This document shows positions 7,170 to 64,000 of a stretch of DNA of 64,000 bases, in pieces. Origin of the DNA: Pseudomonadota bacterium (GTDB lineage: Bacteria > Pseudomonadota > Gammaproteobacteria > Pseudomonadales > Oleiphilaceae); assembly GCA_051744725.1 (NCBI GenBank), contig JBNJDI010000001.1, forward strand, positions 11,455-75,454. The letters are read 5' to 3'. The notes below the pieces were generated by a model, which had not been told where the DNA came from, did no database searches, and saw only the letters and a program-made list of their open reading frames with translations. The position numbers and the translations under genes were made by a program. How positions within the stretch are numbered: the first letter of the stretch is position 1; each line of letters begins with the position of its first letter.

Positions 7170-7178
7170 AAGGCCGCG

Positions 7179-7207
7179 ATTCTAGGGTCCGCACCGTTGA
7201 TTGTCAA
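7179..7207 (-). promoter_or_regulatory. Sigma70 promoter of yceD-rpmF-plsX operon
   Basis: Minus strand TTGACA-17nt-TAGAAT followed by GC-rich CGCGGCC. Confidence 0.85.
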
Positions 7208-7210
7208 AGC

Positions 7211-8245: not shown

Positions 8246-8264
8246 GGTGTCTCCTTGCCGTTAT

Positions 8265-9895: not shown

Positions 9896-10546
9896 TCTGT
9901 GTTTCTCCTGGGATGCGGAGCCACTCCGCAGCTCGTTGATGAGGCAGGGGATTACTGCTATATTGACTCTGTTTTCCCACTCCGCTCGGACCGACGATCT
10001 CGGCCGGCTGGACTGGCGGAACACGGTCAGCGATTGAATCCGCAATTATAGAGCCTTCGGGCCTGGTATGAAACGAGCAGCGGACGCACCGGTTCCACCT
10101 GGCAGGAAAACAGCGAGAGCCAACAGAATCACACAGGCGCGCGGCTGAGTCCTTTCACCCGCCGGCCGGAGCCCAGGAGGCTCTCCCCGGTGGACGATCA
10201 CGGAAACTGAGAACAACGCGCGTCGTGATGGGTGTTCCGCCCGGCCGGAGTCAAGGCCGGAGGAACTGATGTCAATCCGGGCGGAAGCGCGCGGCAGGGT
10301 CATCGCAACGGTTTGAAAACACAGAAGCACCGGTTCGGGCTGTCCTGCTCATGAATATGACATAAGACCTCGTAGCCGGTACGGGACAGACTTCGGTGGC
10401 GTGCGGCCACACAACCGCACGCCTCAAGCACGGGGCCGGCCTCAGAAGGCCCCTCCGGCTTTACTGAAGCGGGCGGACGTACGCCCGCTGTCCTGTCATT
10501 GCGCCCCGCACCGCTTCCGTCGCAGAACGATGGAAGTTTGTTCCAC
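9896..10546 (+). promoter_or_regulatory. rluC/rne intergenic region with long structured rne leader
   Basis: 651 bp non-coding; extended -10-like TGCTATATT near 9956; hairpins 10235-10286 and 10468-10489. Confidence 0.6.
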
Positions 10547-13546
10547 ATGAAAAGAATGCTGATCAATGCAACTCACGAAGAGGAGTTGCGTGTCGCTCTG
10601 GTTGATGGCCAGCGTCTGGTCGATCTTGATATCGAATCCAGCACCCGCGAACAGAAGAAATCCAACATCTACAAGGGGCGCATCACCCGCATCGAGCCCA
10701 GCCTTGAAGCAGCCTTCATTGATTACGGCTCCGAACGTCACGGGTTCCTGCCCCTGAAGGAAATCGCCCGCGAGTACTTCAGCAAGGCCCCGTCCGAGAT
10801 TGATGGCAAGATCAACATCAAGGACGTGCTCAACGAGGGCCAGGAACTGATCGTCCAGGTCGACAAGGAAGAGCGTGGCAACAAGGGCGCGGCCCTGACC
10901 ACCTTTATCACCCTCGCCGGGCGCTACCTGGTCCTGATGCCGAACAACCCCAGAGCCGGCGGCATCTCGCGCCGCATCCAGGGCGATGAGCGCAGCCAGC
11001 TCAAGGACGCCATGTCCGGGCTGAAGGTGCCCAAGGCCATGGGTGTGATCGTCCGCACCGCCGGTATTGGCCGCGAAACCGAAGAGCTGCAGTGGGACCT
11101 GGATTACCTGCTGCAGTTCTGGGACGCCATCACCCAGGCCGCGGAAGCGCGCAAGGCCCCCTTCCTGATCTACCAGGAAAGCAACGTCATCATCCGGGCC
11201 GTGCGCGACTACCTGCGCCAGGACATCACCGAGGTGATGATCGACTCCCCCAGCGTGTACGAGGACGTGCTCAACTTCGTTCGGGCGGTGATGCCCTCGT
11301 TCGAGAACCGGATAAAACTCTATACGGACGACATCCCGCTGCTGAGCCGGTATCAGATCGAGGCCCAGATCGAGACCGCCTTCCAGCGGGAGGTGTCCCT
11401 GCCCTCCGGTGGCTCGCTGGTGATCGACCCCACCGAGGCACTGGTGTCCATCGACATCAACTCCTCGCGCGCCACCCGGGGCGGTGACATCGAGGAGACG
11501 GCCTTCCAGACCAACCTGGAGGCGGCGGACGAGATTGCACGGCAACTGCGCCTGCGCGATATCGGCGGCCTGATCGTGATCGACTTCATCGACATGTCCC
11601 CCAACCGCCACCAGCGCGAGGTCGAGCAGCGTATCCGTGAAGCACTGGAGCTGGATCGCGCCCGCGTGCAGCTGGGCCGCATTTCCCGCTTCGGCCTGAT
11701 GGAAATGTCTCGCCAGCGGCTGCGGCCCTCGCTGGGTGAGACCCGCAGCGAGGTCTGCCCGCGCTGTAACGGCCAGGGCTCCATCCGCAGCATGGAATCC
11801 CAGGCGCTGAGCATCATGCGCCTGATGTACGAGGAATCCTCCAAGGACAAGACCGCGGAAGTACGGGCCCTGGTGCCGGTCACGGTCGCCGCCTTCCTTC
11901 TCAACGAGAAGCGCGACGAGATCAACGCCATTGAGCGGCGCGAGAATGTGCGGGTGCGGGTGATTCCCTCCCAGAACCTGGAGACACCGCACTTCGAGGT
12001 CCAGCGCCTGCGCAGCGACGACACCGAGGTGACCGTCGGTGAAGCAAGCTTCGAGATCGCGGCAAGGCACGAGGACGAGCCGGAGGATGCCTGGTCCGTC
12101 GGCCAGAGCACCGGCGAGCGGGAAGAAGCCGCTGTGAAGGCGGTCACCCCGGCCAACCGCACCCCTGCCCCGGAACCCAAAGCCGAAACACCGGCAGCCG
12201 GTGAAACGCTCGGGTTCTGGCAACGGGTCGGACGCAAGCTCCAGACCATGTTCGCGCCCCCGGAAGAATCCGGTGGAAACCAGCAGGAAAGCGGCTCAGG
12301 CAACCAGCGCCAGGGCGGCGGCTCTACCGACCGGAAGCAGGCTCAGAGCGGCGACGGCCAGCAGCGCCAGCAGGGTGGTGGCCAGCAGCAGAGCGGGCGC
12401 CAGGGCCAGGACGGCAACAACCAGCGCGGCGGCCAGAACCGGCGCCGCCGTGGCGGCCAGAACCGCAACCGGGGCCAGGGACAGCAGGATTCGGACAGCC
12501 AGCAGAAGTCCGGTGGTAAGCAGGACGGCGGCAAGCAGGAAGGTTCCGGCCAGGGCGGCAAAGGCGGTGGCGGCAATCAGTCCCGCCAGTCCGGCAAAGG
12601 TGGCGGACAGAAAACCGGCGGTGATCAGAAGTCTGGTGCTGACCAGAAATCCAGCGCCGATCAGAAGCCCAAGGGCGAGCAGAAATCCGGTTCCGAGCGC
12701 AAGCCCGACACCGAGCAGAAGTCCGGTGGGGGCAACAAAGGCGGCGGTAACGACGGCGCCCCCCAGAAATCCAAGGGGGGAGGCAACCGTCGCAATCGTG
12801 ATTCGGACCGTGACGAGCAGAAGAAGGAGGAATCCCCTGACAAGCAGCCCCAGGGCGGCGGCGATAAGGCCCCCGAGGGCAGTGGCGACAACCAGGGCCG
12901 CTCCGACAACCGCAGAAAGAACCAGGGCCGTGGTGGTTCCGGTGGCAGGAACCGGAACCAGCAGGAAAGCGCCGCGGACGAAACACCGAACCCGGAATTC
13001 CAGCGTCCCCGTCGGCCCCGCCAGAAAAACGGCAAGCCTGCTGACCAGGAATCCGCCGGGGGTGTGACAACGGAAACCGGGAACGCCAGAGCGGAAACGG
13101 AATCCGGAGCTGAAGGTAAGGCCGCAGAGCCAAAAGCGAAGGCAAGCGCCGCAAAAGCGACGGAAACGCCTGCAGCTGAAAAGGACGCCGGTTCCGGCGA
13201 CGAAGGCACCGCTGAAAGTGCACGGCAGCCAGTGGACCCCCCGAAGGCGGCCCCCAGTGAGGCAGCTGCCACCGATGGTGAGCCCGCTGCCAGTACTGAA
13301 GCCCGGAAACAGCCGGAAGCGGAGCCCCGGCCCGAATGGGCTCCCCAGGCTGAACCGGCAACCGCACCCGCACAGACGGCAACAGCGGAAACCGCAACCG
13401 ACGAGGCGGAGAACAGCCCGGCCGAGGATGAGGTTCACCTGGAGCCCATCAAGGGGCGTGCCTACAACGACCCGCGGGAAATCCGCCGGCGCCAGGAAGA
13501 GTTCCGCAGGGCCCGCAACCAGGCAAAGACCAGTGAACAGGAGTGA
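10547..13546 (+). CDS. rne: Ribonuclease E
   Basis: [18 protein letters not shown]1 domain, IDINS, CPRC Zn-link, amphipathic [14 protein letters not shown], disordered CTD ending GRAYNDPRE. Confidence 0.98.
12608..12733 (+). repeat. Seven degenerate 18-nt (hexapeptide) tandem repeats in RNase E CTD
   Basis: [42 protein letters not shown]; CAGAA(A/G) recurs every 18 nt. Confidence 0.8.
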
Positions 13547-13555
13547 CACCAGGTT

Positions 13556-14095
13556 ATGCTGACCGATCAGGACGTGGAAACCCTTGAGTCATTCCTGTTC
13601 GCCCCGGGACAGAGCGATGAGGCACTGGATGTGTTTGGCCTCCACGGAGTGGTTACAGCCTCCGTTGTGGGGCCGGTGCCGGTATCGGTGGAACGCATCC
13701 ACGCCATCGCCACTGCCCAGCCCGAGGCCGGCGGCGATGCCATGCCCGACGAGTTCGGGACACTGGTATCACGGCTTGCCAGGACCATCCAGCAGGAGCT
13801 GGAACAGGGTCAGACGCTGGAGCTGCCGGAACCCGAGGATGACGACACCGCCGAGGAGGCGCTTGAGAACTGGTGTGCGGGTTTTACGGACACCTTCCTG
13901 CTGGATGAGGATCAGTGGTTGGGCGAGGACGAGGAAACCGTGGGGCAGCTGATGACGCCCATCCTGACCCTCTCAAACCTGTTCGATGATGAAGCCTTCC
14001 AGCAGGCGCGCAAGGACCCCAAGCGCCTGGCGGACTATGCCGACGCCATACCGGAACTGCTGACGGACCTCTACCTGCACTATCATTCGCCCTGA
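13556..14095 (+). CDS. YecA/UPF0149 family protein
   Basis: LDVFGLHGVVTASVVGP, LENWCAGF, IPELL; acidic; no C-terminal SEC-C motif. Confidence 0.8.
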   Translation: MLTDQDVETLESFLFAPGQSDEALDVFGLHGVVTASVVGPVPVSVERIHAIATAQPEAGGDAMPDEFGTLVSRLARTIQQELEQGQTLELPEPEDDDTAEEALENWCAGFTDTFLLDEDQWLGEDEETVGQLMTPILTLSNLFDDEAFQQARKDPKRLADYADAIPELLTDLYLHYHSP

Positions 14096-14961
14096 AGGCG
14101 GGCCCGGGTCTCCCTCCGGAAGTGCCACCAGACCGGCTCAGGCCCGGCGGGCAGTTCCGGAAGGCGGCCCAGCTCGGACCAGGGCCGTTCCGGCCAGTGG
14201 AAATCACTGCCCCCCGAGGCCCAGAGCCCGCCATCCAGGCACAGGCGCGTGAGATAACCGCTGTCCTGGGGTGAATGCCCGGCACTGAGCACCTCCAGAG
14301 CCTGACCGCCGGCATCCTGGAATGCCTGTACCAGCTTCCTCAGCTTGTTGTTGGTCAGCCCGTAACGCCGCGGATGCGCCAGCACCGGAATGCCTCCCGC
14401 CTCGCGGATCCAGCCAACAACCTCGGCCAGTTCCGGCCAACAGGTCGCCACGTCTCCCACTTTGCCTGTTCCCAGATAGCGCTGGAACGCCTGCCGTGCC
14501 CCGGGAACCACACCCGCATCCACCAGCGCCCGGGCAAAATGGGGACGCCCCGGAACACCAGCCGCCAGGGCGCGCGCCTCTTCCAGCACCGAGGGCAACC
14601 CCTGTTTCCGCAGCCGCTCGTCAATGGTGCCCGCACGCTCGTGCCGGACACTCTCCTGCCCCTCCAGTGCCTTCAGAAAGCCCGCATCGTCCGGATCAAA
14701 GTCCAGGGCCACCACATGGATGGTCTGATTGCGCCAGAGGCAGGACAGTTCCACGCCGCTGACCAGATGCATGCCTTCCGCCGCGGCCGCCTCCCTGGCC
14801 TCCGCCACACCGGCAATGGTGTCATGGTCGGTCAGCGCCAGAACGCCCACGCCCTTCTCGACGGCGCGAGCGACCAATGAGGCCGGTGAAAGCCCGCCAT
14901 CGGAGGCGGTGCTGTGGCAGTGCAGATCCGCAAGCAGCGGCCTGGGTCCGTCAGTATGCAT
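14083..14961 (-). CDS. PHP-domain protein (YciV/RNase AM-like)
   Basis: [34 protein letters not shown]. Confidence 0.88.
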
Positions 14962-49808: not shown

Positions 49809-50958
49809 TGGCGTCTCCCCCTTCTGTTGCAGGCTGTTCGCCCTCCGCTGCCACGCCCTCCCCCAGAACGGCCTGCGGTCCTCCGCCGGCGATGTGCAGG
49901 GTACGCGTCGGGAAGGCCACTTCCGCCCCGTGTCCGCGGATGATGCTGCTGATGCGCAGCATCACGTCCTGTTTCACGCTCTGGTACGTCACCCACTCCC
50001 GGGTGTGGGTGAAGGCATAGACCATGATGTCCAGCGAAGAGGCATTGAAGGCGGTGAAGTTGACGATCCGGAACTGGTCGGCATCGATGTCCTCATGCTC
50101 CTCCAGCATGCCGCGGATATCGTTCACAATCGGATCGACCACGTCCACATCCTCGTAGCGCACCCCGACCATCTCGTAGATCCGCCGGTTCATCATCCGG
50201 GAGGGATTCTCCACGGAAATGGTGGTGAAAATGGAGTTGGGAACGTAGAGCGGGCGCAGCTCAAAGGTCCTGATCCGGGTTACCCGCCAGCCGATGTGCT
50301 CCACCACCCCCTCAATGCTTGCATCCGGGGAGCGGATCCACTCACCGACCTTGAAGGGTTTGTCCATGTAGACAACGGCACCGCCGAAGAAATTCGCCAG
50401 CATGTCCTTGGCCGCGAAGCCGACTGCAATGCCGCCCACGCCCCCGAAGGCCAGCACCCCGGAAATGCTATAGCCGAGATTCTGGATGATGACCAGGGCG
50501 GCGATCACAAACACGGAAATCCGGGCCAGCTTGCCGATGGCTGACACCGTGGTGTAATCCATGGGCTCGGCAACGCGGCTCGAGACCAGCAGTTCCTCGG
50601 TCCCCTGTATGAACCGCAGCAACGCCCAGACCAGCAGCAGTATGAAGCCAAACCTCAACCCCAGCCCGTTGAGATTGAGCAGGTCGATCTCATAGAAACG
50701 GGCGGCCACTTCCGAGGCGAAATACAGCCCCAGAAGCCAGATATACCAGTATAGCGGGCGCCGTATGGCGTGGATCAGGACGTCATCCCAGAGATTGCGG
50801 TTGTTCCGCAGCTTGCCCTCAACCGCCCGGATCACCCACCAGACAACGAAGGCCACCACAAAGGTGACCAGCAGAATGACACCAGCCCAGAGCAGCCCAC
50901 GGAGTTCCGGAGCGACACCAACTCCGGACAGGAAGCCGTCGAGTGTGGCTAGGTTCAT
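49795..50958 (-). CDS. Small-conductance mechanosensitive channel (YnaI/MscS family)
   Basis: GGVGGIAVGFAAKD, GVVEHIGWRVT, YVPNS, VAFPTRT. Confidence 0.92.
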   Translation of the reverse strand: MNLATLDGFLSGVGVAPELRGLLWAGVILLVTFVVAFVVWWVIRAVEGKLRNNRNLWDDVLIHAIRRPLYWYIWLLGLYFASEVAARFYEIDLLNLNGLGLRFGFILLLVWALLRFIQGTEELLVSSRVAEPMDYTTVSAIGKLARISVFVIAALVIIQNLGYSISGVLAFGGVGGIAVGFAAKDMLANFFGGAVVYMDKPFKVGEWIRSPDASIEGVVEHIGWRVTRIRTFELRPLYVPNSIFTTISVENPSRMMNRRIYEMVGVRYEDVDVVDPIVNDIRGMLEEHEDIDADQFRIVNFTAFNASSLDIMVYAFTHTREWVTYQSVKQDVMLRISSIIRGHGAEVAFPTRTLHIAGGGPQAVLGEGVAAEGEQPATEGGDANGQQ

Positions 50959-51980
50959 GCGGGCGCCTCATCGAGCATCCGCAGCAGCGCCGCGCGGGTA
51001 TCGCGATACCGGGCGGTACTGCGGAAGGCCCCGCGCGGCCCGGGAAGCGGCTTGCCCCGCAGCGATACCAGCCCGGCTGAGGCGCGCGCTCCGGCTTCGC
51101 TCAGGCTTGCGGCCACGGCATCGGCGGCCTCGGGATCGTTGCACACCAGCAGCAGGTCACAGCCGGCATCCAGCGCGGCCTGCGCCCGTGCCGGCGGCTC
51201 GCCGGCCACCGCTGCGCCCGCCATGGTGAGATCATCGCTGATCACAACACCACGGAATCCCACTTCCCGGGAAAGCACGTTCTTCAGCCAGAACGGGGAG
51301 AAACCGGCCGGCTGTTCATCCACGCCGGGATAGACCACATGGGCGGGCATGACGGCATCCAGCGTCTCCGCCAGCTCCCGGAAAGGTACCGCGTCATGCC
51401 CCAGGATCTGCTCCAGGGTACGCCCGTCGCTGGGAAGCTCGTGGTGGGAGTCCGCCGCAATGGCGCCATGGCCGGGGAAGTGCTTGCCCACCGCCGCCAT
51501 GCCACCTTCATGCATCCCCTCAATCCAGGCGCCGGCGAGCTCCGCCACCACCTGTGGATCGGAATGGAAGCTGCGATCCCCGATCACACTGGAAACCCCA
51601 TGATCCAGATCCAGCACCGGCGCGAAGCTGAAATCCACATCCATGTCACGCAGCTCGGAGGCCATCAGCCAGCCGGCGGCGTGGGCAATGGCACGGCCAT
51701 TCTCCGGATCCCGCTCCCAGGCCAGACCGAAACTGCGCATCGGAGGCAGGCGCGTAAGCCCGGACTGAAAGCGCTGTACCCGGCCTCCCTCCTGGTCCAC
51801 GCCAATCAGTATGCGTGGCCGGATCTGGCGGATGGACTGCACCAGCGCCCGCAGCTGGGCCGGTGACTCGTAATTGCGGGAAAAAAGGATCACTCCGCCC
51901 ACCGCCTCATGGGCAAGCCGTTCACGCTCGGGGGCGCTGAGACGTGGCCCCTCGAGATCGATCATCAATGGTCCGCTCAC
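50955..51980 (-). CDS. nagZ: Beta-N-acetylhexosaminidase
   Basis: GVDQEGGRVQR, FAPVLD, KHFPGHG, DSH, SDDL. Confidence 0.96.
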   Translation of the reverse strand: MSGPLMIDLEGPRLSAPERERLAHEAVGGVILFSRNYESPAQLRALVQSIRQIRPRILIGVDQEGGRVQRFQSGLTRLPPMRSFGLAWERDPENGRAIAHAAGWLMASELRDMDVDFSFAPVLDLDHGVSSVIGDRSFHSDPQVVAELAGAWIEGMHEGGMAAVGKHFPGHGAIAADSHHELPSDGRTLEQILGHDAVPFRELAETLDAVMPAHVVYPGVDEQPAGFSPFWLKNVLSREVGFRGVVISDDLTMAGAAVAGEPPARAQAALDAGCDLLLVCNDPEAADAVAASLSEAGARASAGLVSLRGKPLPGPRGAFRSTARYRDTRAALLRMLDEAPA

Positions 51981-52020
51981 CGGGCCTCCCTAAACGACAC
52001 AAGAACAGCCCGGGCCGGCC

Positions 52021-52545
52021 TCACTGAACAAGGACAGGCGTGCCCGGGCGTACCCATTCCCAGAGCTGAAGAATGTCATCATTGCGCATCCGGATACAAC
52101 CGTGGGACAGCGGCTGCCCCATGGGCTCCGTATCCGGTGTGCCATGGATGTAAATGAACCGTCGCATGGTATCAACAGCGCCCCCGCGGTTATACCCGGG
52201 TTCCTCGCCACAGAGCCAGAGAATCCGCGTGAGTATCCAGTCACGCCCGGGATGTGCCTGATGGAGCTCCGGGCTCCAGACCTCTCCGGTGGGACGCCGG
52301 CCGCGGAAGACCGCGCCCCGGGGCTGGCCGGCGCCGATGCAGGAGCGCACGCGGTGCCACCCCAGCGGGGTTCCGCCGGAACCGTCCTGCTGACCGGGCC
52401 CGGCGGCGGCCGTGGCAATGCGGTAGCAGAGCCATGGACCAGCGCGCCCGCTCAGAGTCATGACCTGCCGGGCCAGGTCCACCTCGATCCGCTCAATCGG
52501 ATCCGCGCCGTCAGGCACCGCTGTCGGGATTCCCTGTGTTGCCAT
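52021..52545 (-). CDS. L,D-transpeptidase (YkuD) family protein
   Basis: DWILTRILWL, IYIHGT, SHGCIRM; start approximate. Confidence 0.88.
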   Translation of the reverse strand: MATQGIPTAVPDGADPIERIEVDLARQVMTLSGRAGPWLCYRIATAAAGPGQQDGSGGTPLGWHRVRSCIGAGQPRGAVFRGRRPTGEVWSPELHQAHPGRDWILTRILWLCGEEPGYNRGGAVDTMRRFIYIHGTPDTEPMGQPLSHGCIRMRNDDILQLWEWVRPGTPVLVQ

Positions 52546-53185
52546 GGGCAACAGTATGCGCCTGCATCCCCGCGGCAAGGAAGGGGACGAGCTGGTCCAC
52601 AATCTCCTCATTGGGTGTCTCAACCCCCAGTTTGTTCCAGAGGATCTCAGTGAGCGCATCACTGCTGGAGAGGGTGAAGGCTGTGGCACCCAGCATGAAC
52701 TGGTTGCGCCAGTAGCGTTCCACGGCGGACAGCTCCGGCGTAGCGTTTTTGAGAAGCCGCATGAAGCGGCCGAAGGTGTGGTTGTACTCGGCTTCCAGGA
52801 ACCGGCGCAGGTGCCCCTGGGACTGGGTGTAGGCGAGCCCCTGCAGGCGCATGTAGATGGCGATGCTGCGGTCGTGCTTGCGCGGCATTTCCACCAGGGT
52901 GCCAGTGAGCACGCGGAGCACGGACTCCAGATCGGGCGGCTCCGGGGCTGCTTCCGCCTCCAGGCGGTCAAAGGCCTCCTCAAGCGCAATACAGAAGGGG
53001 GTGAGGAAGCGTGCGAATACCGCCTGAATGAGTGATTTCTTGGAGCCGAAATGGTAATTGACCGCAGCCAGATTCACCCCGGCCTTACCCGTGATCATGC
53101 GGAGAGAGGTCTCGGAAAAGCCTCTTTCGGCGAACAGTTCCTCCGCCGCGTCCAGAATCCTGTTCACTGTATCCGAATGCGCCAT
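52511..53185 (-). CDS. psrA: TetR-family regulator PsrA
   Basis: MAHSDTVNRILDAAEELFAERGFSETSLRMITGKAGVNLAAVNYHFGSKK; upstream of nagZ; PsrA boxes in promoter. Confidence 0.88.
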   Translation of the reverse strand: MAHSDTVNRILDAAEELFAERGFSETSLRMITGKAGVNLAAVNYHFGSKKSLIQAVFARFLTPFCIALEEAFDRLEAEAAPEPPDLESVLRVLTGTLVEMPRKHDRSIAIYMRLQGLAYTQSQGHLRRFLEAEYNHTFGRFMRLLKNATPELSAVERYWRNQFMLGATAFTLSSSDALTEILWNKLGVETPNEEIVDQLVPFLAAGMQAHTVAHGNTGNPDSGA

Positions 53186-53208
53186 GGAATCCCGCTCAAA
53201 CGTGTGAC

Positions 53209-53235
53209 CAAACAATTGTTTGAAACATACGTTTG
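53209..53235. promoter_or_regulatory. Two overlapping PsrA boxes (autoregulation)
   Basis: CAAAC-AATT-GTTTG (53209-53222) and GAAAC-ATAC-GTTTG (53222-53235) fit (C/G)AAAC-N2-4-GTTT(G/C). Confidence 0.8.
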
Positions 53236-53248
53236 AGTCGGAAGGGTG

Positions 53249-54229
53249 TCAAGGCGCGCTCGAGGATGGGTTACCGGCATCCGCTGGAGCCGGAGCTGCC
53301 TCGGTGGCCCCCTCCCCTTCGCCCTCCGCGGATTCCGGTGCCCCGGCGCCCGGATCCGAATCCGGCACCGGCACCAGGCTGGGATCCGTGGCCTGGGAAG
53401 CCGCATCCAGCGGCTCTGCATCCCCGTCATCCAGCATCTGCTCGTGCGTACGCAGGTATTCATCCCGAAGTCGGTTATAGGCCTTTTCCGCTTCCAGGGC
53501 AAAGATGAGATAGAGCTGGGCCTGGGCCCGGTTCCGGATGCTGTCCACCAGCTGCCCTTTCTCGGAAAGACTGTAGAGTCCGGTGTAGCGGCTGCGACGC
53601 AAGGTGGGATTATACTCGCCCAGCGGACGGCATGCAGCCGCCAGGCCAATGGGACCCTCCAGGTGTTCAACGTGCTTGCGGGCACGGTGCAGCAGGCGCC
53701 GCCGCTTCAGCAACAGCTCCATATGGGAGGCCTGGTGGGTGAACACATGACGCACACCCGGCAGCCCCCAGAACGCGGCCAGAGCCAGGCCGCCAAAGGC
53801 CACACCACCGATCAGAGCCGGCACCAGGTTGCCCATACCCGCCAGAACCAAGGCGGCAAGTACGCTCAGAAGCAACAGCCAGCTGTCGCGCCGACGCCGC
53901 GCCAGATTCAGCTGGTGGTGATCCGGCCACCCGGGCATGGCCAGGGTATCGAAGTCCAGCAGAAGCAGACGCTCGCAGTCGTGCAGCAGTCTGCGCCGGC
54001 GTTTCTGGCGTTTATGCTCGGCCTCACGTGCCGCCCGCAGCGCGGCTTCGGGGTCCGCATCCGCAGAGGCCTCCTCGCCGCTGGCCGGATCACCATCCGA
54101 CTCGTCCACCGGACTTCCGGAATCCACCGACGGGTCTCCTGCCGGGGTTTCCGGTTCGGGAACCGGTTCCAGTCGACCGCCGGGATGAACCCGCGGTTCC
54201 TCCGTCCGTTCAGGCTGATGCTGCGCCAT
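53249..54229 (-). CDS. Hypothetical membrane protein with acidic disordered termini
   Basis: GGAG upstream of ATG 54229; central hydrophobic hairpin; no family recognised. Confidence 0.75.
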   Translation of the reverse strand: MAQHQPERTEEPRVHPGGRLEPVPEPETPAGDPSVDSGSPVDESDGDPASGEEASADADPEAALRAAREAEHKRQKRRRRLLHDCERLLLLDFDTLAMPGWPDHHQLNLARRRRDSWLLLLSVLAALVLAGMGNLVPALIGGVAFGGLALAAFWGLPGVRHVFTHQASHMELLLKRRRLLHRARKHVEHLEGPIGLAAACRPLGEYNPTLRRSRYTGLYSLSEKGQLVDSIRNRAQAQLYLIFALEAEKAYNRLRDEYLRTHEQMLDDGDAEPLDAASQATDPSLVPVPDSDPGAGAPESAEGEGEGATEAAPAPADAGNPSSSAP

Positions 54230-54382
54230 CCCAATTCTCCGCGTGCCTGGACCATCACTGGTTAACGGCTGATTCCCACCGGTTTTGAGTACCCGCCCCA
54301 TGCTCTGGCATGTGTTGGCAGCGTAGCGTATTCTGATTCACCCTGATGTCTGTGGAACAAACTTTTACAGAGGCATGGCTCC

Positions 54383-54805
54383 ATGACGACCACACCGAAG
54401 ATCCTGGTACGCGACTACATGCGTTCACTGTCACTCTGGTTCTCGCCTTCCGACCCGATCGAGAAAGTGGCGGCCACCCTGGTCAAGCAGGAGGAGCTGG
54501 GCGCACCGGTTCTGGACGAACACAAGCGGCTTGTCGGCTTTGTGACCGAGCAGGACTGCATCAAGGAGATGCTCAACGACTCCTATTACGCCCAGGAACA
54601 CCAGCTTGTGAGTGACGTGATGTCGCGGCGGACCGTTTCCGTCGGCCCGAATGAGGACGTGACCCACCTGGCGGAGGAAATGCTTGGCGCCAAGCCCAAG
54701 ATCTATCCCGTGGTCGAGGACAGCCGGGTTATCGGGGTCATCACGCGGGGGGATGTGCTGCGGGCGCTGAGCCGTGTACGCAACAGTGGCCACGGCCACA
54801 TCTGA
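54383..54805 (+). CDS. CBS-pair protein
   Basis: VRDYM, APVLDEHKRLVGFVT, VSDVMS, YPVVEDSRVIGVITRGD. Confidence 0.9.
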   Translation: MTTTPKILVRDYMRSLSLWFSPSDPIEKVAATLVKQEELGAPVLDEHKRLVGFVTEQDCIKEMLNDSYYAQEHQLVSDVMSRRTVSVGPNEDVTHLAEEMLGAKPKIYPVVEDSRVIGVITRGDVLRALSRVRNSGHGHI

Positions 54806-54817
54806 CAGGGTGCCCAG

Positions 54818-55441
54818 GTGTTTACAGGAATTGTTCAGGGCATCGCCCGAGTGGAAACCGTCGAGCGGCTGGCCGGCCTCCACCGAATCCGGCTGCGGTT
54901 TCCGGCAGACTTCATTGATGGCATTGCGGTCGGCGCCTCGGTATCCGTCAACGGTGCCTGCCTGACGGTCACCGAAGCCTGGCCGGACAGCCATCTGGCG
55001 GCCTTTGACGTAATGATGGAAACCCTGAGGGTCACCACTCTGGGGGCGTTGCAGAAAGGGGATGCGGTCAACGTCGAGCGGGCTGCCCGCATCGGCGATG
55101 AAGTCGGCGGGCACCTGCTGTCGGGCCATGTCCACTGCATGGCCAGGGTCAGCGCCGTTGAGGAGCCCGAGAACAACCGCCGGATCGTCTTCTCCGTTCC
55201 CCAGGCGTGGCGCCCTTACCTCATCAGCAAGGGCTACATCGCGGTGGATGGAGCCAGCCTCACCATTGCTGAGCTGACCGGGGACGGCTTTGCCGTCTAC
55301 CTTATTCCGGAGACACTCAGGGCGACGCGTTTCGGAACGCTCGGTGAAGGCGACCAGGTGAACATTGAAATCGACCACCAGACCCAGACCATCATCGATA
55401 CCCTGAACCGTCTGGACCTGGTGCCCCGCGGGGCCGATTGA
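54818..55441 (+). CDS. ribC: Riboflavin synthase
   Basis: MFTGIV N-terminus, GASVSVNGACLTV, GGHLLSGHVH, IAVDGASLT. Confidence 0.96.
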   Translation: MFTGIVQGIARVETVERLAGLHRIRLRFPADFIDGIAVGASVSVNGACLTVTEAWPDSHLAAFDVMMETLRVTTLGALQKGDAVNVERAARIGDEVGGHLLSGHVHCMARVSAVEEPENNRRIVFSVPQAWRPYLISKGYIAVDGASLTIAELTGDGFAVYLIPETLRATRFGTLGEGDQVNIEIDHQTQTIIDTLNRLDLVPRGAD

Positions 55442-55459
55442 CCCCGCGGCCGCGCTTTT

Positions 55460-56584
55460 CTAGCGCTGGTAGCCGGGGCGCAGGAAGGGCATGGCGGAGA
55501 CCGTCATGCTGCGGCGCTTACCCCGCACATCCGCCTCAACGGTGGTGCCCTTCTCCGCCAGATCCGCACGCACATACCCCATGGCAATGGGTGCGCCGAC
55601 ACTGGCGGCGAAATTGCCGCTGGTTACTTCCCCGATGGCCTCATCGCCGCCTTCGGCATAGAGTACGGCGCCCTCGCGCACCGGTGCCTTGCCTTCAGCC
55701 ACGAGTCCAACCCGCCTGCGCTCCGGCGCGTTATCGCGCATCTGCTGCAGAACCCGCTGCGCTCCCGGGAAGCCGCCCTCGCGCTCCCCGCCGGGCCTGC
55801 GGGGCTTACCGATGGCCCAGCCGAGAGAGGCCTCAACCGGCGTGGTATCTGGGGTGATGTCATGACCATAGAGACAGAGGCCCGCTTCAAGGCGCAGCGA
55901 ATCCCGGGCACCAAGCCCCACCGGTTCCACATTCTCATCCGCCAGCAGGCGCCGGGCCAGGGTCTCAGCCACGTCCGCCGGGACCGAGATCTCGTAGCCA
56001 TCCTCGCCGGTGTAACCGCTGCGGGAAATGATCGCCGGGCTGTCGAGCAGTGTCATGGACCAGTTGTCCATGAACTTCATTTGCCGGACCTCCGGCTGGA
56101 GCTTCGCCAGTGCTTCCTCCGCTTTCGGCCCCTGGAGGGCGATCAGCGCCCTGTCGGTCATCTCGGTCAGGGTGATGGATGCCGGCAGCCCGGCGCGCAG
56201 GTGGGCAATGTCCTCGGCCTTGCAGGCGGCGTTGACGACCAGGTAGAAGCCATCCTCATGACGGCTGATCATCAGGTCATCCAGGACACCCCCATCCTCG
56301 TTGGTGAACAGACCATAACGCTGGCGGTGCATGCCCAGCCCGACCAGGTCCGCGGGAATCATGGCCTCAAGGGCTTCCGCGATGCCCTCGCCACTGAGCC
56401 AGACCTGGCCCATGTGGGACACATCAAAAAGGCCCGCCCCTTCCCGGGTATGCAGGTGTTCCTGCTTGATGCCCGCGGGGTACTGCACCGGCATGCTGTA
56501 GCCGGCAAAGGGCACCATGCGCGCACCGAGTTCCTCGTGGAGGGTGGTCAGCGGGGTTGTGAGCAATGCCTGATCGTTCGCCAT
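55460..56584 (-). CDS. gcvT: Glycine cleavage T protein
   Basis: GARMVPFAGYSMPVQY, GLFDVSHMG, SRSGYTGEDGYE, GLGARDSLRLEAG. Confidence 0.97.
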   Translation of the reverse strand: MANDQALLTTPLTTLHEELGARMVPFAGYSMPVQYPAGIKQEHLHTREGAGLFDVSHMGQVWLSGEGIAEALEAMIPADLVGLGMHRQRYGLFTNEDGGVLDDLMISRHEDGFYLVVNAACKAEDIAHLRAGLPASITLTEMTDRALIALQGPKAEEALAKLQPEVRQMKFMDNWSMTLLDSPAIISRSGYTGEDGYEISVPADVAETLARRLLADENVEPVGLGARDSLRLEAGLCLYGHDITPDTTPVEASLGWAIGKPRRPGGEREGGFPGAQRVLQQMRDNAPERRRVGLVAEGKAPVREGAVLYAEGGDEAIGEVTSGNFAASVGAPIAMGYVRADLAEKGTTVEADVRGKRRSMTVSAMPFLRPGYQR

Positions 56585-56665
56585 GAGCCTGTCTCTCCTG
56601 TTGTTGTTTCGGAGCCGCCTGTACCCGCGGCTCCCGCTGAGCTGGATTGCCCCCATGATGCCGTA

Positions 56666-56679
56666 TTTCCGATTGGAAA
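56666..56679. promoter_or_regulatory. Putative operator upstream of gcvT
   Basis: TTTCC-GATT-GGAAA palindrome; second half-site TTTCC at 56685. Confidence 0.6.
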
Positions 56680-56691
56680 CAAAGTTTCCTG

Positions 56692-57327
56692 TCAGGCTGT
56701 CACCCAGAGGACTTCCGCGTCCTCTTCGCTCACGGAAACCAGCATATGCCCCATGGTGCAGTCGTAATAGGCACTGTCTCCGGCTTCCAGGCGCACGGGT
56801 TCATAGAACTCCGTATAGAACAGGATTGTCCCGCTCAGTACATACAGGAATTCCTCGCCGTCATGGCGGATCCATTCCGGAAAATCGCCGAAAGCGCGCG
56901 CCCGCACACGCGTCGTGAAAGGCACCATTTTCTTGTGGCTCAGATCCGTGGCCAGCAGTTCGTGTTCATAGGTGGCCGTGGGATGGGGCTTGCCCTCCCC
57001 CCGGCGCGTGATGTCGCGCCGCCCGGACGGCTGGGCGCTGTTGCTGGGCTCTGAGAACAGCTGCGGCAGGTCGATGCCCAGTCCGTTAACCAGCTTGTGC
57101 ACCACCGAGAAGGTGGGTGAAATCTGCTCGTTCTCAATCTTCGACAGCGTGGAGCGCGCAAGCCCCGTCAGCTTGCTGGCTTCTTCCAGGGTCAGCCCCT
57201 GACCCAGGCGCAGCGACCGGACGCGCTCTCCCAGCCGCAGCGGCTGCAGTGTGGCTTCGGTTTCACCGCGCTGGACCTGCAGGGTCTCGTGAAGCGGCTC
57301 CCGCATGTTCTCGCTGTCCTCGGCCAT
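56692..57327 (-). CDS. XRE-family HTH + cupin transcriptional regulator
   Basis: LGERVRSLR...TGLARSTLSKIENEQISPT; cupin HDGEEFLYVLSG...GDSAYYD...H. Confidence 0.92.
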   Translation of the reverse strand: MAEDSENMREPLHETLQVQRGETEATLQPLRLGERVRSLRLGQGLTLEEASKLTGLARSTLSKIENEQISPTFSVVHKLVNGLGIDLPQLFSEPSNSAQPSGRRDITRRGEGKPHPTATYEHELLATDLSHKKMVPFTTRVRARAFGDFPEWIRHDGEEFLYVLSGTILFYTEFYEPVRLEAGDSAYYDCTMGHMLVSVSEEDAEVLWVTA

Positions 57328-57337
57328 GATTCGCGTG

Positions 57338-57351
57338 TTTCCTATAGGAAA
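57338..57351. promoter_or_regulatory. Putative operator between XRE gene and gcvH
   Basis: Perfect 14-bp palindrome TTTCCTATAGGAAA. Confidence 0.65.
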
Positions 57352-57357
57352 TTTACG

Positions 57358-57386
57358 TTGTTTGTGGGAAAATCCGTTGTTAATCT
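57358..57386 (+). promoter_or_regulatory. Candidate gcvH promoter
   Basis: TTGTTT-17nt-TAATCT with extended TG at 57378. Confidence 0.5.
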
Positions 57387-57436
57387 AACACAGACAACCC
57401 TACAACCACATGACTCTGCTGCAGGAGGACGGAGCG

Positions 57437-57829
57437 ATGACAGCGACGCCCGAGGAACTTCTCTACACCCCCAGCCACGAATGGATCCGTGACAACGGCG
57501 ACGGCACCGTGACCATGGGCATCACCGACCACGCCCAGGATCAGCTCGGCGACGTTGTCTTCGTGGAGCTCCCGGAAGCCGACCAGAGCTTTGCCAAGGG
57601 CGATGAGCTGGCGGTCGTGGAATCCGTAAAGTCCGCCTCGGACATCTACTCGCCCATCAGCGGCACCGTCCAGAGCGTGAACGAAGCGCTCGAAGATGCC
57701 CCCGAGACCGTGAATGAGCACTGCTACGGGGACGGCTGGATGGTACGCATCAAGCTGGACAACGCGGACGAACTCTCTGAACTCCTGTCGGCCGAGCGCT
57801 ATCAGGAGCTCGTTGCCGACGAAGCCTGA
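57437..57829 (+). CDS. gcvH: Glycine cleavage H protein
   Basis: HEWI, GITDHAQDQLGDVVFVELP, lipoyl VESVKSASD. Confidence 0.97.
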   Translation: MTATPEELLYTPSHEWIRDNGDGTVTMGITDHAQDQLGDVVFVELPEADQSFAKGDELAVVESVKSASDIYSPISGTVQSVNEALEDAPETVNEHCYGDGWMVRIKLDNADELSELLSAERYQELVADEA

Positions 57830-57844
57830 CCCAGGAGGTAGCCC

Positions 57845-60720
<2,876 letters not shown>

Positions 60721-60721
<1 letters not shown>

Positions 60722-60782
60722 AGTTTTTACTCGGATTAGGGTGATTATTCTAATTTTTCACCCTAATCTGGCGTTAGAACTC
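60721..60782 (+). other. 62-nt AT-rich imperfect hairpin
   Basis: Perfect 11-bp core GATTAGGGTGA/TCACCCTAATC extended by an outer stem GAGTT...AACTC. Confidence 0.7.
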
Positions 60783-60841
60783 AAGGGCAGCAATGGAGGT
60801 GATCCATCGCTGAGAAGTCCCCAGACAGTTGGAGCACAACC

Positions 60842-61252
60842 ATGAGCGATCTGACACGCAGGATTCAGGAACAGACCAGCCAGCAATGGCAGAAGGCCAA
60901 TCAGGAACTGCAGCGTGTGCTCAGGGATCTCGGTGCGCGGGATGCGGAAAATGAGTCCTTCCAGGAAATGGTCCGGGACATCCGTGAGAAGAACCCCTCC
61001 TTCCGGGAGTTCATGTTCAGCCTGGACGCGGCCACCTACGACACGCGCAAGCGCCTGTCGTGGAACGCGCACATGACCTCCGCCTATCTCATGAACCGGG
61101 TCGAGGCCTCCTACACCAACGATCTCAAGCCGCTGGTGGCCAACTACCGCCAGCAGGCCAGCGAACGGCTGACCGCCCTGAAGCAGCAGCTTCGCAGCAT
61201 GCGCGAACGCTTCCAGTCCGCCGCTTCCGACAGCGACGACACGCAGGACTAA
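60842..61252 (+). CDS. Hypothetical all-helical protein
   Basis: 136 aa, GGAG upstream, own terminator, amphipathic Q/E/R-rich helices. Confidence 0.8.
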   Translation: MSDLTRRIQEQTSQQWQKANQELQRVLRDLGARDAENESFQEMVRDIREKNPSFREFMFSLDAATYDTRKRLSWNAHMTSAYLMNRVEASYTNDLKPLVANYRQQASERLTALKQQLRSMRERFQSAASDSDDTQD

Positions 61253-61286
61253 CCCCCTGCCTGAAGCACACCGGCATACCCCTCCT

Positions 61287-61314
61287 CCCCGTGCCCTGGC
61301 GCACGGGGTTTTTT
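61287..61314 (+). terminator. Intrinsic terminator
   Basis: CCCCGTGC-6nt-GCACGGGG-T6. Confidence 0.85.
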
Positions 61315-61951
61315 ATGCGTAACGCACGCCCGTACCCGCCAACCCGCAGTAACCGCCCGGATTCTTGTGCAGATACTGCTGGTGCCAGCCCTCGGCGTAA
61401 TAGAAGGTCACGTCCTGCGCCAGCTCCGTGCTGATACGCCCCTGGCCGGCGACATCCAGGGCCTTCTGGTAGGCCTCCATTGAGGCCTGCGCAACTCCAA
61501 GGCTGTCTTCATCCGGAAGATAGAGCGCGGAACGGTACTGGGTTCCCACATCATTGCCCTGGCGCATCCCCTGGGTGGGATCATGGGACTCCCAGAACAC
61601 CTGCAGGAGCGCCTCCAGCGACACCACCGCCGGGTCATGAATGACACGGACCGCCTCCGTATGGCCTGTCCGGGCACTGCAGACCTCTTCATAGGTGGGA
61701 TTGGGGGTGTAACCGCCGGCATAGCCCACGGCCGTTGTATACACGCCCTCCAGCTGCCAGAAGCACTGCTCAGCGCCCCAGAAACAGCCCATACCTACGA
61801 CCAGCTCCCGGCAGTGTTCCGGAAACGGCGGCAGCAGTGGCGTCCCCAGCACCGCGTGCCGGTTGCTGACGGGCATTTCAGAAGAACGCCCCGGCAGCGC
61901 CTCTTCCGGCGTTACCATCCGCATCTTTTCCCTGCTGAACAGATGCCACAT
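61313..61951 (-). CDS. msrA: Peptide methionine sulfoxide reductase A
   Basis: [35 protein letters not shown]-like WHQQYL, GYCG. Confidence 0.97.
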
Positions 61952-62006
61952 CTCCGGATCTCCCCAAGGTTCAGTAATACCCCAACAATAACGGACAGCC
62001 GCCCAC

Positions 62007-62039
62007 AAAAAACCCCCTGCCGGAATCCGACAGGGGGTT
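62007..62039 (-). terminator. Intrinsic terminator after aceA
   Basis: AACCCCCTG-11nt-CAGGGGGTT with T tail on the minus strand. Confidence 0.82.
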
Positions 62040-62083
62040 CTGTATCGGCGCGGCCCCGCGGGGCCGCAACACCGGAACCGGTT

Positions 62084-63679
62084 TTAGAACTGGTTCATGG
62101 TGTTGTCTTTACCACCGGCCTTCAGGGCTGCTTCGCCCGCGAAGTATTCCTTGTGGTCGTCACCGATGTTGGAGCCGGCCATGTCCTGGTGCTTGACGCA
62201 CGCCAGACCCTTACGGATCTCCTGGCGCTGGACGTCGCGCACGTAAGCCAGCATGCCTTCCTCACCGAAGTAGCCCTTGGCCAGGTTGTCCGTGGACAGG
62301 GCCGCGGTGTGGTAGGTCGGCAGTGTGATGAGGTGGTGGAAGATGCCCGCGTGCTTGGAACCATCCTTCTGGAAGTTCTGGGTCCAGCGGTCGGCTTCCG
62401 CAGCAAGTTCGGAATCGTCGTACTTGCTGTTCATCAGGTCGGAGCGGTCGTACTGGGACACGTCCTTGCCTTCTTCCTTCCACGCATCGAAAACCTGCTG
62501 GCGGAAGTTCAGGGTCCAGTTGAAGGACGGGCTGTTGTTGTAGACCAGCTTGGCGTCCGGCACTTCTTCCTTGATGCGGTTGACCATGCCCGCGATCTGG
62601 CCGACGTGGGGCTTCTCGGTCTCGATCCACAGCAGGTCGGCGCCGTTCTTCAGGCTGGTGATGCAGTCCAGAACCACGCGGTCCTCGCCGGTGCCTTCCT
62701 GGAACTCGTACAGGCCGTTGGGCAGGCGCATCGGCTTGTGCAGCTCGCCCTTCTTCTTGATGACCATGTCACCTTCCTGAACGTCTTCCGCAGACTTGAC
62801 CGGCTCGGTCTTCAGGAAACTGGTGTAGGTCGCCGCCAGATCGCCGGGCTCCTGGGAAACCGGGATCTTGTGGGTCAGGCCCGCGCCCAGGGAGTCGGTA
62901 CGCGCGACGATGACGCCGTCTTCAACACCCAGCTCGAGGAACGCATAGCGAACCGCGTTGATCTTGGCGATGAAGTCCTCGTGGGGGCAGGTTACCTTGC
63001 CGGCCTGGTGACCGCACTGCTTGGCGTCGGATACCTGGTTCTCGATCTGGATGGCGCAGGCGCCCGCCTCGATCATCTTCTTGGACAGCAGGTAGGTCGC
63101 TTCCTCGTTACCGAAACCGGCATCGATGTCGGCGATGATCGGCACAACGTGGGTCTCGAAGTTGTCGATCTTGTCGATCAGCTCCTGGACCTTCTTGTCG
63201 TCGCCGGCTTCGCGCGCCGCGTCCAGGTCGTGGAACAGGTGGTTGAGTTCGCGTGCGTCCGCCTGCTTGAGGAAGGTGTAGAGCTCCTCGATCAGGGACG
63301 GAACCGCCGTCTTCTCGTGCATGGACTGGTCGGGCAGCGGGCCGAACTCGGAGCGCATGGCCGCAACCATCCATCCGGAGAGGTAGAGGTAGCTGCGCTT
63401 GGTGGTGCCGTGATGGCGCTTCACGGCCATCATCTTCTGCTGGCCGATGAACCCGTGCCAGCAACCCAGGGACTGGGTGTACTTGCTGTGGTCCTTGTCG
63501 TACTCGGCCATGTCCTCGCGCATGATCCTGGCGGTGTAACGCGCAATGTCCAGGCCGGTCTGGAACCGGTTCTGGGCGCGCATGCGGGCCACATACTCAG
63601 GCGTAATGTGGTCCCATTTGCCGCCCTGCGACTTGCGCAGTGCAGCTGCTTCTTCAATGTCCTTCATGTAGTTCGACAT
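62084..63679 (-). CDS. aceA: Isocitrate lyase (long Pseudomonas-type)
   Basis: YLSGW, IADIDAGFG, QIENQ, KQCGHQ, WIETEKP, YNNSPSFNW. Confidence 0.97.
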   Translation of the reverse strand: MSNYMKDIEEAAALRKSQGGKWDHITPEYVARMRAQNRFQTGLDIARYTARIMREDMAEYDKDHSKYTQSLGCWHGFIGQQKMMAVKRHHGTTKRSYLYLSGWMVAAMRSEFGPLPDQSMHEKTAVPSLIEELYTFLKQADARELNHLFHDLDAAREAGDDKKVQELIDKIDNFETHVVPIIADIDAGFGNEEATYLLSKKMIEAGACAIQIENQVSDAKQCGHQAGKVTCPHEDFIAKINAVRYAFLELGVEDGVIVARTDSLGAGLTHKIPVSQEPGDLAATYTSFLKTEPVKSAEDVQEGDMVIKKKGELHKPMRLPNGLYEFQEGTGEDRVVLDCITSLKNGADLLWIETEKPHVGQIAGMVNRIKEEVPDAKLVYNNSPSFNWTLNFRQQVFDAWKEEGKDVSQYDRSDLMNSKYDDSELAAEADRWTQNFQKDGSKHAGIFHHLITLPTYHTAALSTDNLAKGYFGEEGMLAYVRDVQRQEIRKGLACVKHQDMAGSNIGDDHKEYFAGEAALKAGGKDNTMNQF

Positions 63680-63817
63680 GATTCACCTATGCTTCGGGAG
63701 TGGAACAACACGATTGTCGGCGGCTCCCCTGTACCGGAGAGTCGTACCTCGAGCGCTGGCGTATTCTATCCGGATTCAAACCATAATTAAAATCAATGCA
63801 ATCAATTCCCGACATTC

Positions 63818-64000
63818 TTACCGTGAATGTTTGGAATTCACTGAATAGACCCGGAACCGGCCATCATCCGAGAGTGTGCGCACCGGGCCGATGAAGCGCC
63901 CCATGGGCTCCTGGTACGGCAGGAAGGCGTTGGCGACCAGCCGCAGCTCAGCGCCCGGTTCCAGAAAGGCCGGCAGCTCACGGAACCACTGGTTGACCGG
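63818..64000 (-). CDS. rsmC: Class I SAM methyltransferase, RsmC-like C-terminus (partial)
   Basis: Hand translation ...FLEPGAELRLVANAFLPY...DDGRFRVYSVNSKHSR*. Confidence 0.75.
   Translation of the reverse strand, partial: PVNQWFRELPAFLEPGAELRLVANAFLPYQEPMGRFIGPVRTLSDDGRFRVYSVNSKHSR

Follow-up and report, generated by a model that had tools for sequence, protein, structure and literature searches.

A predicted XRE-cupin regulator of glycine cleavage genes and its candidate TTTCC-N4-GGAAA operator

Glycine cleavage is central to one-carbon metabolism, and its control is understood in E. coli (GcvA/GcvR), in Pseudomonas (GcsR) and in riboswitch-bearing bacteria. In the literature searched, no named glycine-cleavage regulator was found for Vibrionaceae, Oceanospirillales, halophilic relatives of Halomonadaceae or Roseobacters. 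What, then, controls the gcv genes at the locus described here, in a stretch of 64,000 nucleotides (the window) from a Pseudomonadota genome of the Oleiphilaceae? An XRE-cupin transcription factor gene is placed between gcvT and the divergent gcvH-gcvP pair, a layout that a preliminary description had read from the sequence and that the coordinates and Pfam matches bear out. The four genes are the following.

55460-56584, minus strand: gcvT, aminomethyltransferase of 374 amino acids (Pfam GCV_T, 2.7e-83, and GCV_T_C), a predicted target.
56692-57327, minus strand: XRE-cupin transcription factor gene, intact, 211 amino acids (Pfam HTH_3 and Cupin_2).
57437-57829, plus strand: gcvH (Pfam GCV_H, 6.6e-47), a predicted target.
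57845-60721, plus strand: gcvP, glycine dehydrogenase of 958 amino acids, a predicted target, with predicted co-transcription with gcvH.

From sequence comparison, we consider it very probable that the XRE-cupin protein directly regulates the gcv genes through two dyads that flank its own gene.

56666-56679: predicted operator dyad O(T), TTTCCGATTGGAAA, an exact dyad of 27.3 bits with a homologous site in 41 of 41 loci.
57338-57351: predicted operator dyad O(R/H), TTTCCTATAGGAAA, a perfect palindrome of 33.0 bits with a homologous site in 47 of 48 loci.

O(T) is located 13 nt past the regulator stop codon and 82 nt ahead of the gcvT start, and O(R/H) sits within the divergent regulator/gcvH intergenic region. 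Both dyads, together with two further half-sites, TTTCC at 56685-56689 and GGAAA at 57367-57371, were found exactly where the preliminary description had placed them. The dyads are the only exact matches to TTTCC-N4-GGAAA in the 64-kb window, compared to 0.02 expected by chance, and none of 100 shuffled windows contained two exact matches. A symmetric weight matrix built from 71 distinct orthologous sites has the consensus AAG-TTTCCTATAGGAAA-CTT, with 1.4-1.9 bits at the arms and the central AT. Scanning the window with this matrix gave 33.0 and 27.3 bits for the two dyads and 3.0 bits for the next best match, so that all but two of the 12 best matches are at or below 3.0 bits; the top score of 50 shuffles was 15.3. 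Once a single mismatch was allowed, the only extra match in the window was at 48438 (TTCCCTGCCGGAAA), which was dismissed for its GC-rich spacer and its place outside these 12 best matches.

An ortholog scan with one genome per species yielded 80 loci, the regulators of which are 67-99% identical to that of the window. Identity reaches 99% in Halovibrio salipaludis and a strain labelled Vreelandella utahensis, which places the window in a halophilic gammaproteobacterium of this group. The regulator is gcv-linked in 48 of the 80 loci, with gcvH/gcvP on one side, gcvT on the other side, or both, and these loci span Halovibrio, Natronospirillum, Saccharospirillum, Marinobacterium, Oceanospirillum, Amphritea, Pontibacterium and an Endozoicomonadaceae genome. 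The gcvP of the window is 84-95% identical to that of close relatives and 60-65% identical to that of the other gcv-linked contigs. Of the 48 gcv-linked loci, 47 have a dyad with no more than one mismatch upstream of the regulator (29 exact), and the last one has a two-mismatch version at the homologous place. The stretch between the regulator and gcvT contains such a dyad, again with one mismatch at most, in 41 of 41 loci (35 exact). Conservation of the motif had been chosen beforehand as the point on which the proposal could fail, and the dyad was found conserved at both positions. Moreover, an unbiased count of all 5-Nx-5 palindromes in the 300 bp upstream of the regulator ranked TTTCC-N4-GGAAA first, with 24 of 41 non-redundant linked loci containing it versus one of 26 unlinked loci, the latter a 2.6-kb contig fragment. 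The intergenic DNA around the dyad has diverged, while the dyad columns keep 1.4-1.9 bits. The sequence TTTCCTAAAGGAAG in Neptuniibacter loci was rejected as an operator, as it lies within the N-terminal coding sequence.

These results bear on whether the palindromes might be structural or accidental, that is, a terminator hairpin or a chance AT-rich repeat without any regulatory protein. The position of the gcvT-side dyad, 13 nt past a stop codon, would suit such an origin, but the chance expectation of 0.02 per window and the conservation in two proteobacterial classes amid diverged spacers render it extremely improbable. A terminator hairpin at the gcvT-side dyad was rejected, since the stem is AT-rich and of only 5 bp, no T-run follows and the terminator scan was empty.

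Beyond the close relatives, a tblastn search against PLSDB, in which several second chromosomes are filed as plasmids, revealed the regulator in Vibrio, Salinivibrio and Photobacterium at 61-70% identity and in Roseobacters at 48-52%. In Salinivibrio and Vibrio alginolyticus, a gcvP-gcvH-glyA(-sdaA) cluster is divergent from the XRE gene, which is followed by gcvT, and gcvP is annotated at the same position in Salinivibrio and Vibrio; the annotated Vibrio regions thus show that the preliminary description was right about an XRE gene in Vibrio gcv clusters. In Ruegeria pomeroyi DSS-3 and Parasedimentitalea, gcvT-gcvH(-gcvP) is divergent from the XRE gene, and in Phaeobacter the divergent cluster is lpdA-lipA-symporter-gcvT-gcvH-gcvP. 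The corresponding dyads are TTTCCTATAGGAAA in Vibrio, two copies of TTTCCAATAGGAAA in Salinivibrio and TTTCCTTTTGGAAA in Photobacterium among the Vibrionaceae, and TCTCCTATAGGAAA in Ruegeria, GTTCCTATAGGAAA in Parasedimentitalea and TTTCCTTTAAGAAA in Phaeobacter among the Roseobacters. As a side observation, the gcv cluster on a 760-kb replicon of Salinivibrio proteolyticus (L082) is directly followed by a type I-E CRISPR-Cas operon (cas3, casA, casB, cas7e) at 9034-14630.

A paralogue of 53% identity is encoded on pBVIE01 of Burkholderia vietnamiensis G4 (L085), in a locus without gcv genes that contains genes for an FAD-linked oxidase, an aldehyde dehydrogenase and a D-amino-acid dehydrogenase. 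This locus has dyads at 3269 and 11698; the D-amino-acid dehydrogenase gene is preceded by TTTCCTATCGGAAA at 48 nt, the aldehyde dehydrogenase gene by TTTCCGATGCGAAA at about 10 nt. The operator type may be common to a wider subfamily with other amino-acid-related targets.

The relatives also indicate which genes could share the operator. Many Oceanospirillaceae have genes for serine hydroxymethyltransferase and L-serine dehydratase in the 3 kb that separate gcvH from the regulator, and past gcvT a lipoyl-synthase-like radical-SAM gene and a SoxG-like gene (sarcosine oxidase gamma family; L021, L029, L031, at about 6000-8300). The Phaeobacter gcv operon is headed by lpdA and lipA, and its dyad lies upstream of the whole lpdA-lipA-symporter-gcvTHP operon. 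The gene orders in Oceanospirillaceae and Phaeobacter suggest that a dedicated lipoylation and E3 supply is co-regulated with glycine cleavage. Extra dyads precede sdaA in two Natronospirillum loci (L009, L010) and, in Amphritea (L075), a Na:alanine-family symporter gene; in relatives, glyA has a dyad in front of it as well. The predicted regulon, comprising gcvTHP, glyA, sdaA, the Na:alanine-family symporter and lipA/lpdA, would correspond to the route from glycine via serine to pyruvate.

A blind scan of metagenome contigs for the 16-mer GTTTCCTATWGGAAAC gave at least 120 matches, and most of the 120 matches listed are chance or unrelated. For 27 of the matches listed, an adjacent gene is that of the regulator, gcvT/H/P, sdaA, glyA or the symporter; among the neighbouring proteins, the regulator forms the largest cluster, with 16 loci. 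At least six contigs lack a regulator gene and have the dyad in the interval that separates the divergent genes for L-serine dehydratase (sdaA) and ribose-5-phosphate isomerase (rpiA); these may be distant targets of the regulator.

Metagenome contigs with the sdaA-rpiA dyad: L119, L126, L155, L190, L192 and L209.

In the same scan, at least 12 matches place GTTTCCTATWGGAAAC at the 5' end of AAA_14/DUF4143 ATPase genes, on contigs of 25% to 64% GC and unconnected to glycine genes.

Contigs with the AAA_14/DUF4143 matches: L103, L107, L110, L128, L130, L153, L184, L185, L187, L196, L198 and L204.

The metagenome contigs that have a dyad before sdaA and no regulator gene nearby could also be read in another way, namely that the dyad belongs to a different regulator of glycine/serine catabolism encoded elsewhere, the XRE-cupin gene being a mere neighbour with another target. 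The existence of equally similar regulator copies without the dyad points in the same direction. Against this, 47 of 48 loci have the dyad in front of the regulator's own gene, regardless of whether its divergent neighbour is gcvH, sdaA, glyA, gcvT or lpdA, the paralogue on pBVIE01 retains the dyad in a locus without gcv genes, and the regulator is the one gene besides gcv that accompanies the dyad in both Alpha- and Gammaproteobacteria; for these three reasons we consider the motif to be tied to the protein and not just to gcv. In addition, a 14-bp operator with 5-bp arms set 4 bp apart fits a dimer with a 434-type helix-turn-helix (HTH). We therefore regard a separate regulator as quite improbable. 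The proposal that the regulator would control gcvT, gcvHP and itself through these boxes, made in the preliminary description, gains support from the conserved homologous positions, the top-ranked palindrome and its persistence in Vibrionaceae and Alphaproteobacteria.

The regulator consists of two domains: an N-terminal XRE/Cro-CI HTH (Pfam HTH_3, 1.7e-12, with HTH_31 and HTH_19; residues 31-90) and a C-terminal cupin (Pfam Cupin_2, 1e-12; residues 150-209). Its start is ambiguous between ATG 57327, which gives 211 amino acids, and ATG 57306, corresponding to Met8, which gives 204; the former lies 10 nt from the dyad without a Shine-Dalgarno sequence, the latter is preceded by GAGGA, and the 204-residue form is used by some NCBI records. 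As expected of an XRE-cupin factor, predicted operator palindromes stand next to the gene, here on both sides of it. AlphaFold2 with an alignment of 30 sequences gave a medium-quality model with a predicted local distance difference test score (pLDDT) of 69, in which five helices (residues 32-91) are connected by a poorly defined linker to a confident β-barrel (residues 135-210); the pLDDT is 81-93 at residues 141-150 and 161-210, and 70 at residues 151-160. Little or no variation is seen among 66 homologues in the segment R58-STLSKIEN-E-Q68, and the same holds for H155, E159 and H194 at the metal-ligand positions of the cupin.

Structural similarity search using Foldseek matched the HTH to C.AhdI and DdrO, with a root-mean-square deviation of about 1.2 Å. 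Alignments of both domains, about 200 columns long and with E-values between 1e-8 and 1e-9, were obtained with HppE, HEPD and an uncharacterised HTH_3-family regulator of Vibrio cholerae (PDB 1Y9Q), and they give no functional clue. All share the HTH-cupin two-domain fold with the regulator but differ in sequence (16-20% identity), and HppE and HEPD are enzymes; the TM-scores are about 0.3 because the relative orientation of the domains differs in our medium-confidence model. A sequence search of the PDB returned matches at the level of the HTH only. In NCBIfam, no named family was found and the single match, below threshold, was to PuuR, the putrescine-utilisation repressor of E. coli. PuuR shares the two-domain architecture, but only the HTH aligns (residues 30-100), at 54 bits versus an equivalog cut-off of 211 for NF007408, and an orthology with PuuR was rejected on these grounds. 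Every source names the protein generically.

How the dyads might act depends on where they lie relative to the promoters. As a consensus promoter and terminator scan of 56500-57500 called nothing, promoters were assigned from conserved registers and from the ends of metatranscriptome contigs.

Plus strand: predicted gcvH-gcvP promoter, -35 TTGTTT at 57358-57363, 17-nt spacer, -10 TAATCT at 57381-57386, in a conserved register.
57362-57397, minus strand: predicted regulator promoter, -35 TTGTCT at 57392-57397, -10 GATTTT at 57369-57374, RNA 5' end near 57362.
56655-56682, minus strand: candidate gcvT promoter of low confidence, -35 TTGTTT at 56677-56682, 16-nt spacer, -10 CATCAT at 56655-56660, overlapping the dyad.

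On the gcvH side, the register dyad-N6-TTGCCA/TTGTTT-N17-TAGTCT/TAATCT is kept in Halovibrio, Oceanospirillum, Marinobacterium and Amphritea, and it puts the dyad centre of the window at about -48.5 of the predicted promoter. Toward the regulator, L008 and L042 have TTTCCT-N18/19-TATAAT, with the dyad on the -35 of the regulator promoter. Toward gcvT, the Halovibrio clade keeps a CAnnAT hexamer 5 nt past the dyad; in Saccharospirillum and Natronospirillum, the right arm of the dyad, TTGGAA, is followed by N17-18 and CATGAT/CATTAT. Most Oceanospirillaceae have TTGCAT-N17-TAAGTT-G-dyad in this direction, where the spacer contains TTTCC and the dyad falls at about -5 to +9.

Metatranscriptome contigs from a salt lake are near-identical to the window around 55300-58300, matching 84-89% of the sampled words in three runs and 40% in a fourth; the organism of the window expresses the gcv cluster in situ in a salt lake. 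The regulator gene and gcvT are found on one contig at similar depth, and gcvH-gcvP is 5-10 times deeper than this transcript. Between the divergent transcripts, none of the four runs covers the 44 nt at 57363-57406. In two runs, an adapter junction directly follows 57362, which is no more than suggestive of a regulator start near this position; with such a start, O(R/H) would fall at +12 to +25, in the transcribed leader of the regulator.

The position at -48.5 raises the prospect that the same protein uses the same sites as an activator or a dual regulator, which in its glycine-bound form would recruit RNA polymerase to a weak gcvH (or sdaA/glyA) promoter and repress its own overlapping divergent promoter, like lambda cI at PRM. 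The strict conservation of the dyad-N6-(-35)-N17-(-10) register on the catabolic side, the poor -10 (TAATCT/TAGTCT) and poor -35 (TTGTTT/TTGCCA) hexamers, and the 5-10 times greater depth of gcvHP over regulator-gcvT in the salt lake all agree with this, as does NceR of Neisseria gonorrhoeae, an XRE-family protein reported as an activator as far as an entry in the reference list of PMC12724383 tells. The gcvT side speaks otherwise: there the dyad occupies repressing positions, on the transcription start in Oceanospirillaceae and on the -35 or spacer in Saccharospirillum, Natronospirillum and the window, and opposite signs at the two operators would be odd because gcvT must be made together with gcvHP. 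Moreover, the XRE-cupin factors characterised genome-wide are all repressors (PMC7901475). We consider activation or dual control unlikely.

The half-sites next to the dyads add a further layer to the architecture of the two operators.

56684-56689: auxiliary half-site GTTTCC on the gcvT side, kept only in L001-L009.
57367-57371: auxiliary half-site GGAAA, 20 nt from the right half of the dyad, in the spacer of the gcvH promoter and overlapping the predicted regulator -10.

On the gcvT side, GTTTCC and the nearer half of the dyad form an everted repeat, GGAAAC-AAA-GTTTCC on the plus strand and GGAAAC-TTT-GTTTCC in the gcvT direction. The half-site at 56685 is conserved only in the Halovibrio/Halospina clade, and in other genera a TTTCC of opposite orientation lies 20 nt upstream of the dyad. 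The regulator/gcvH side has a TTTC block (-20 to -17) at a distance of 20-21 nt from the dyad, kept in 32 non-redundant loci; as it sits at the overlap of two core promoters, it may be a promoter element and not a protein contact. The extra half-sites in the preliminary description are thus real and only partly general, the gcvT-side one being limited to Halovibrio/Halospina. Likewise, the position of GGAAA at 57367 stood, but its supposed overlap with the gcvH -35 did not, since the conserved register puts it in the spacer.

An everted GGAAAC-N3-GTTTCC is also found upstream of gcv-unlinked regulator copies of Marinobacterium (L026, L040, L045, L058, L065), at about 3913-3930. There it follows directly after a TATACT box, in place of the inverted dyad. 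These copies share the recognition-helix consensus, and in the window the everted pair is fused to the dyad (56666-56689). The same recognition helix appears to be paired with GTTTCC hexamers in three ways: as an inverted pair 4 bp apart, as an everted pair 3 bp apart, and as lone half-sites that lie within the -35/-10 spacers, at two helical turns from the dyad. Together with the low-confidence linker between HTH and cupin, these three arrangements would fit an AraC-like protein, in which the ligand switches the half-sites that two DNA-binding domains occupy, and not a simple repressor with one dimer on one palindrome. The ligand would perhaps be glycine, chelating a metal held by His155, Glu159 and His194. 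We give this mode of action little chance; if true, it would mean an ancient portable glycine sensor common to Alpha- and Gammaproteobacteria.

The reading that we prefer is that of a dimeric, autoregulated local repressor of the gcv genes that is released by glycine, and as a whole we hold it to be likely. The sequence data show the domain architecture and the operators with their conservation and positions; we infer that the dyads are bound by this protein, that it represses rather than activates and that glycine is its ligand; provided that the regulation is direct, repression is probable, and glycine as the effector has about an even chance. With its 434/lambda-like HTH, a dimer would read (G)TTTCC-TATW-GGAAA(C), a palindrome of 14-16 bp. 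O(T) would overlap the putative gcvT promoter or act as a roadblock on read-through from the regulator gene, whereas O(R/H), at about +12 to +25 of the regulator promoter, would lie directly upstream of the gcvH -35, with the auxiliary half-site two helical turns off, within the overlapping core promoters. In the effector-free state, the protein would occupy its sites and repress gcvT, gcvH-gcvP and its own gene. Binding of the effector, most likely glycine, to the C-terminal cupin would lower the affinity for DNA and induce the pathway. In relatives, the same pair of regulator and operator would also control glyA, sdaA, the Na:alanine-family symporter and lipA/lpdA.

Several points weigh against this model. 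In 32 of the 80 loci, an equally similar regulator copy has neither gcv genes nor a dyad within 4 kb, so that protein similarity alone is no predictor of the target; one genome carries both the linked and the unlinked kind (L074 and L077). No residue splits gcv-linked from unlinked copies, and the same recognition-helix and cupin-core consensus is present in both, hence the unlinked copies are not a separable class of paralogues at the sequence level. A dyad at about -48.5 on the gcvH/sdaA side could allow activation as well as repression, and repression there would depend on a weak half-site in the spacer or on the block of an UP element. The consensus promoter scan was empty, adapter junctions also occur at internal positions of the metatranscriptome contigs, and these contigs, as assembled, are without strand information. 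The choice of glycine as the effector follows pathway logic only, and no binding or expression experiment for any member was found in the literature.

How does this regulator compare with known systems? Control of gcvTHP in E. coli depends on glycine through GcvA, a LysR-type activator/repressor with the partner GcvR, and in Bacillus and Vibrio cholerae through the glycine riboswitch, a cis-acting RNA. In P. aeruginosa, GcsR (PA2449), a TyrR-like sigma-54 enhancer-binding protein and ATP-dependent activator, is encoded beside its cluster and provides glycine-responsive control of gcvH2, gcvP2, glyA2, sdaA and gcvT2. The XRE-cupin protein would act on the same gene set as GcsR, its nearest functional analogue, but GcsR differs in protein family and mechanism; like GcvA/GcvR and the riboswitch, it would give glycine-dependent control of gcvTHP, but it is an XRE-cupin protein. 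Neither a LysR-type (GcvA) nor an AAA+ sigma-54 activator (GcsR) gene is present among the annotated neighbours at 52-64 kb of the window. No glycine riboswitch was detected by Rfam in 50000-64000 (E-value mode, no match at E <= 1) or in the loci of eight relatives, two Vibrio included (gathering score). These results agree with the preliminary description, which had seen none of the three at the locus. The neighbours at 52-64 kb include, by Pfam, a TetR-family gene, a CBS-domain gene and riboflavin synthase, and, as we read the translations, presumably MsrA and isocitrate lyase. Among them, a minus-strand open reading frame of 350 amino acids (53249-54301) has acidic, Pro/Ala/Glu-rich low-complexity ends and a central hydrophobic segment.

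The closest parallels are the XRE-cupin factors of Pseudomonas, comprising PauR, PsdR, ErfA, PA0535, PA1359, PA1884 and PA4987 (Trouillon et al. 2021, PMC7901475). Every one tested in P. aeruginosa is a local repressor whose palindromic binding sites lie in core promoters next to its own gene (PMC7901475). For DbuR of P. putida, the protected site is a 20-bp palindrome that covers the -10 (PMC12724383). The regulator of the window resembles them in its XRE HTH and cupin, in the location of its gene beside metabolic targets, in palindromes at core promoters and in a site in front of its own gene. It differs from them in the pathway, which here is glycine cleavage and serine deamination, and from DbuR in the operator, a 14-bp TTTCC-N4-GGAAA dyad compared to the 20-bp AATTCTCATATATTAGAATT. 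Unlike those of the Pseudomonas factors, the dyad, predicted from sequence, is conserved far past one genus, into Alphaproteobacteria. Glycine, gcv and this motif go unmentioned in these two papers and in a survey of XRE motifs from 2025 (PMC12565409). The preliminary description knew of no account of this operator, and likewise the literature searched contained no description of a gcv-specific XRE-cupin regulator or of a TTTCC-N4-GGAAA operator. Local repressors of the XRE-cupin type are known (PuuR, PauR, PsdR, DbuR), and what is new here is a gcv-specific member together with its operator.

Altogether, the finding offers a candidate protein, a precise operator, AAG-TTTCCTATWGGAAA-CTT, and a predicted regulon for the bacterial groups named at the outset, which are abundant marine heterotrophs that consume glycine and carbon derived from glycine betaine. 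If the ligand is glycine, the pair of regulator and operator would also constitute a compact glycine biosensor.

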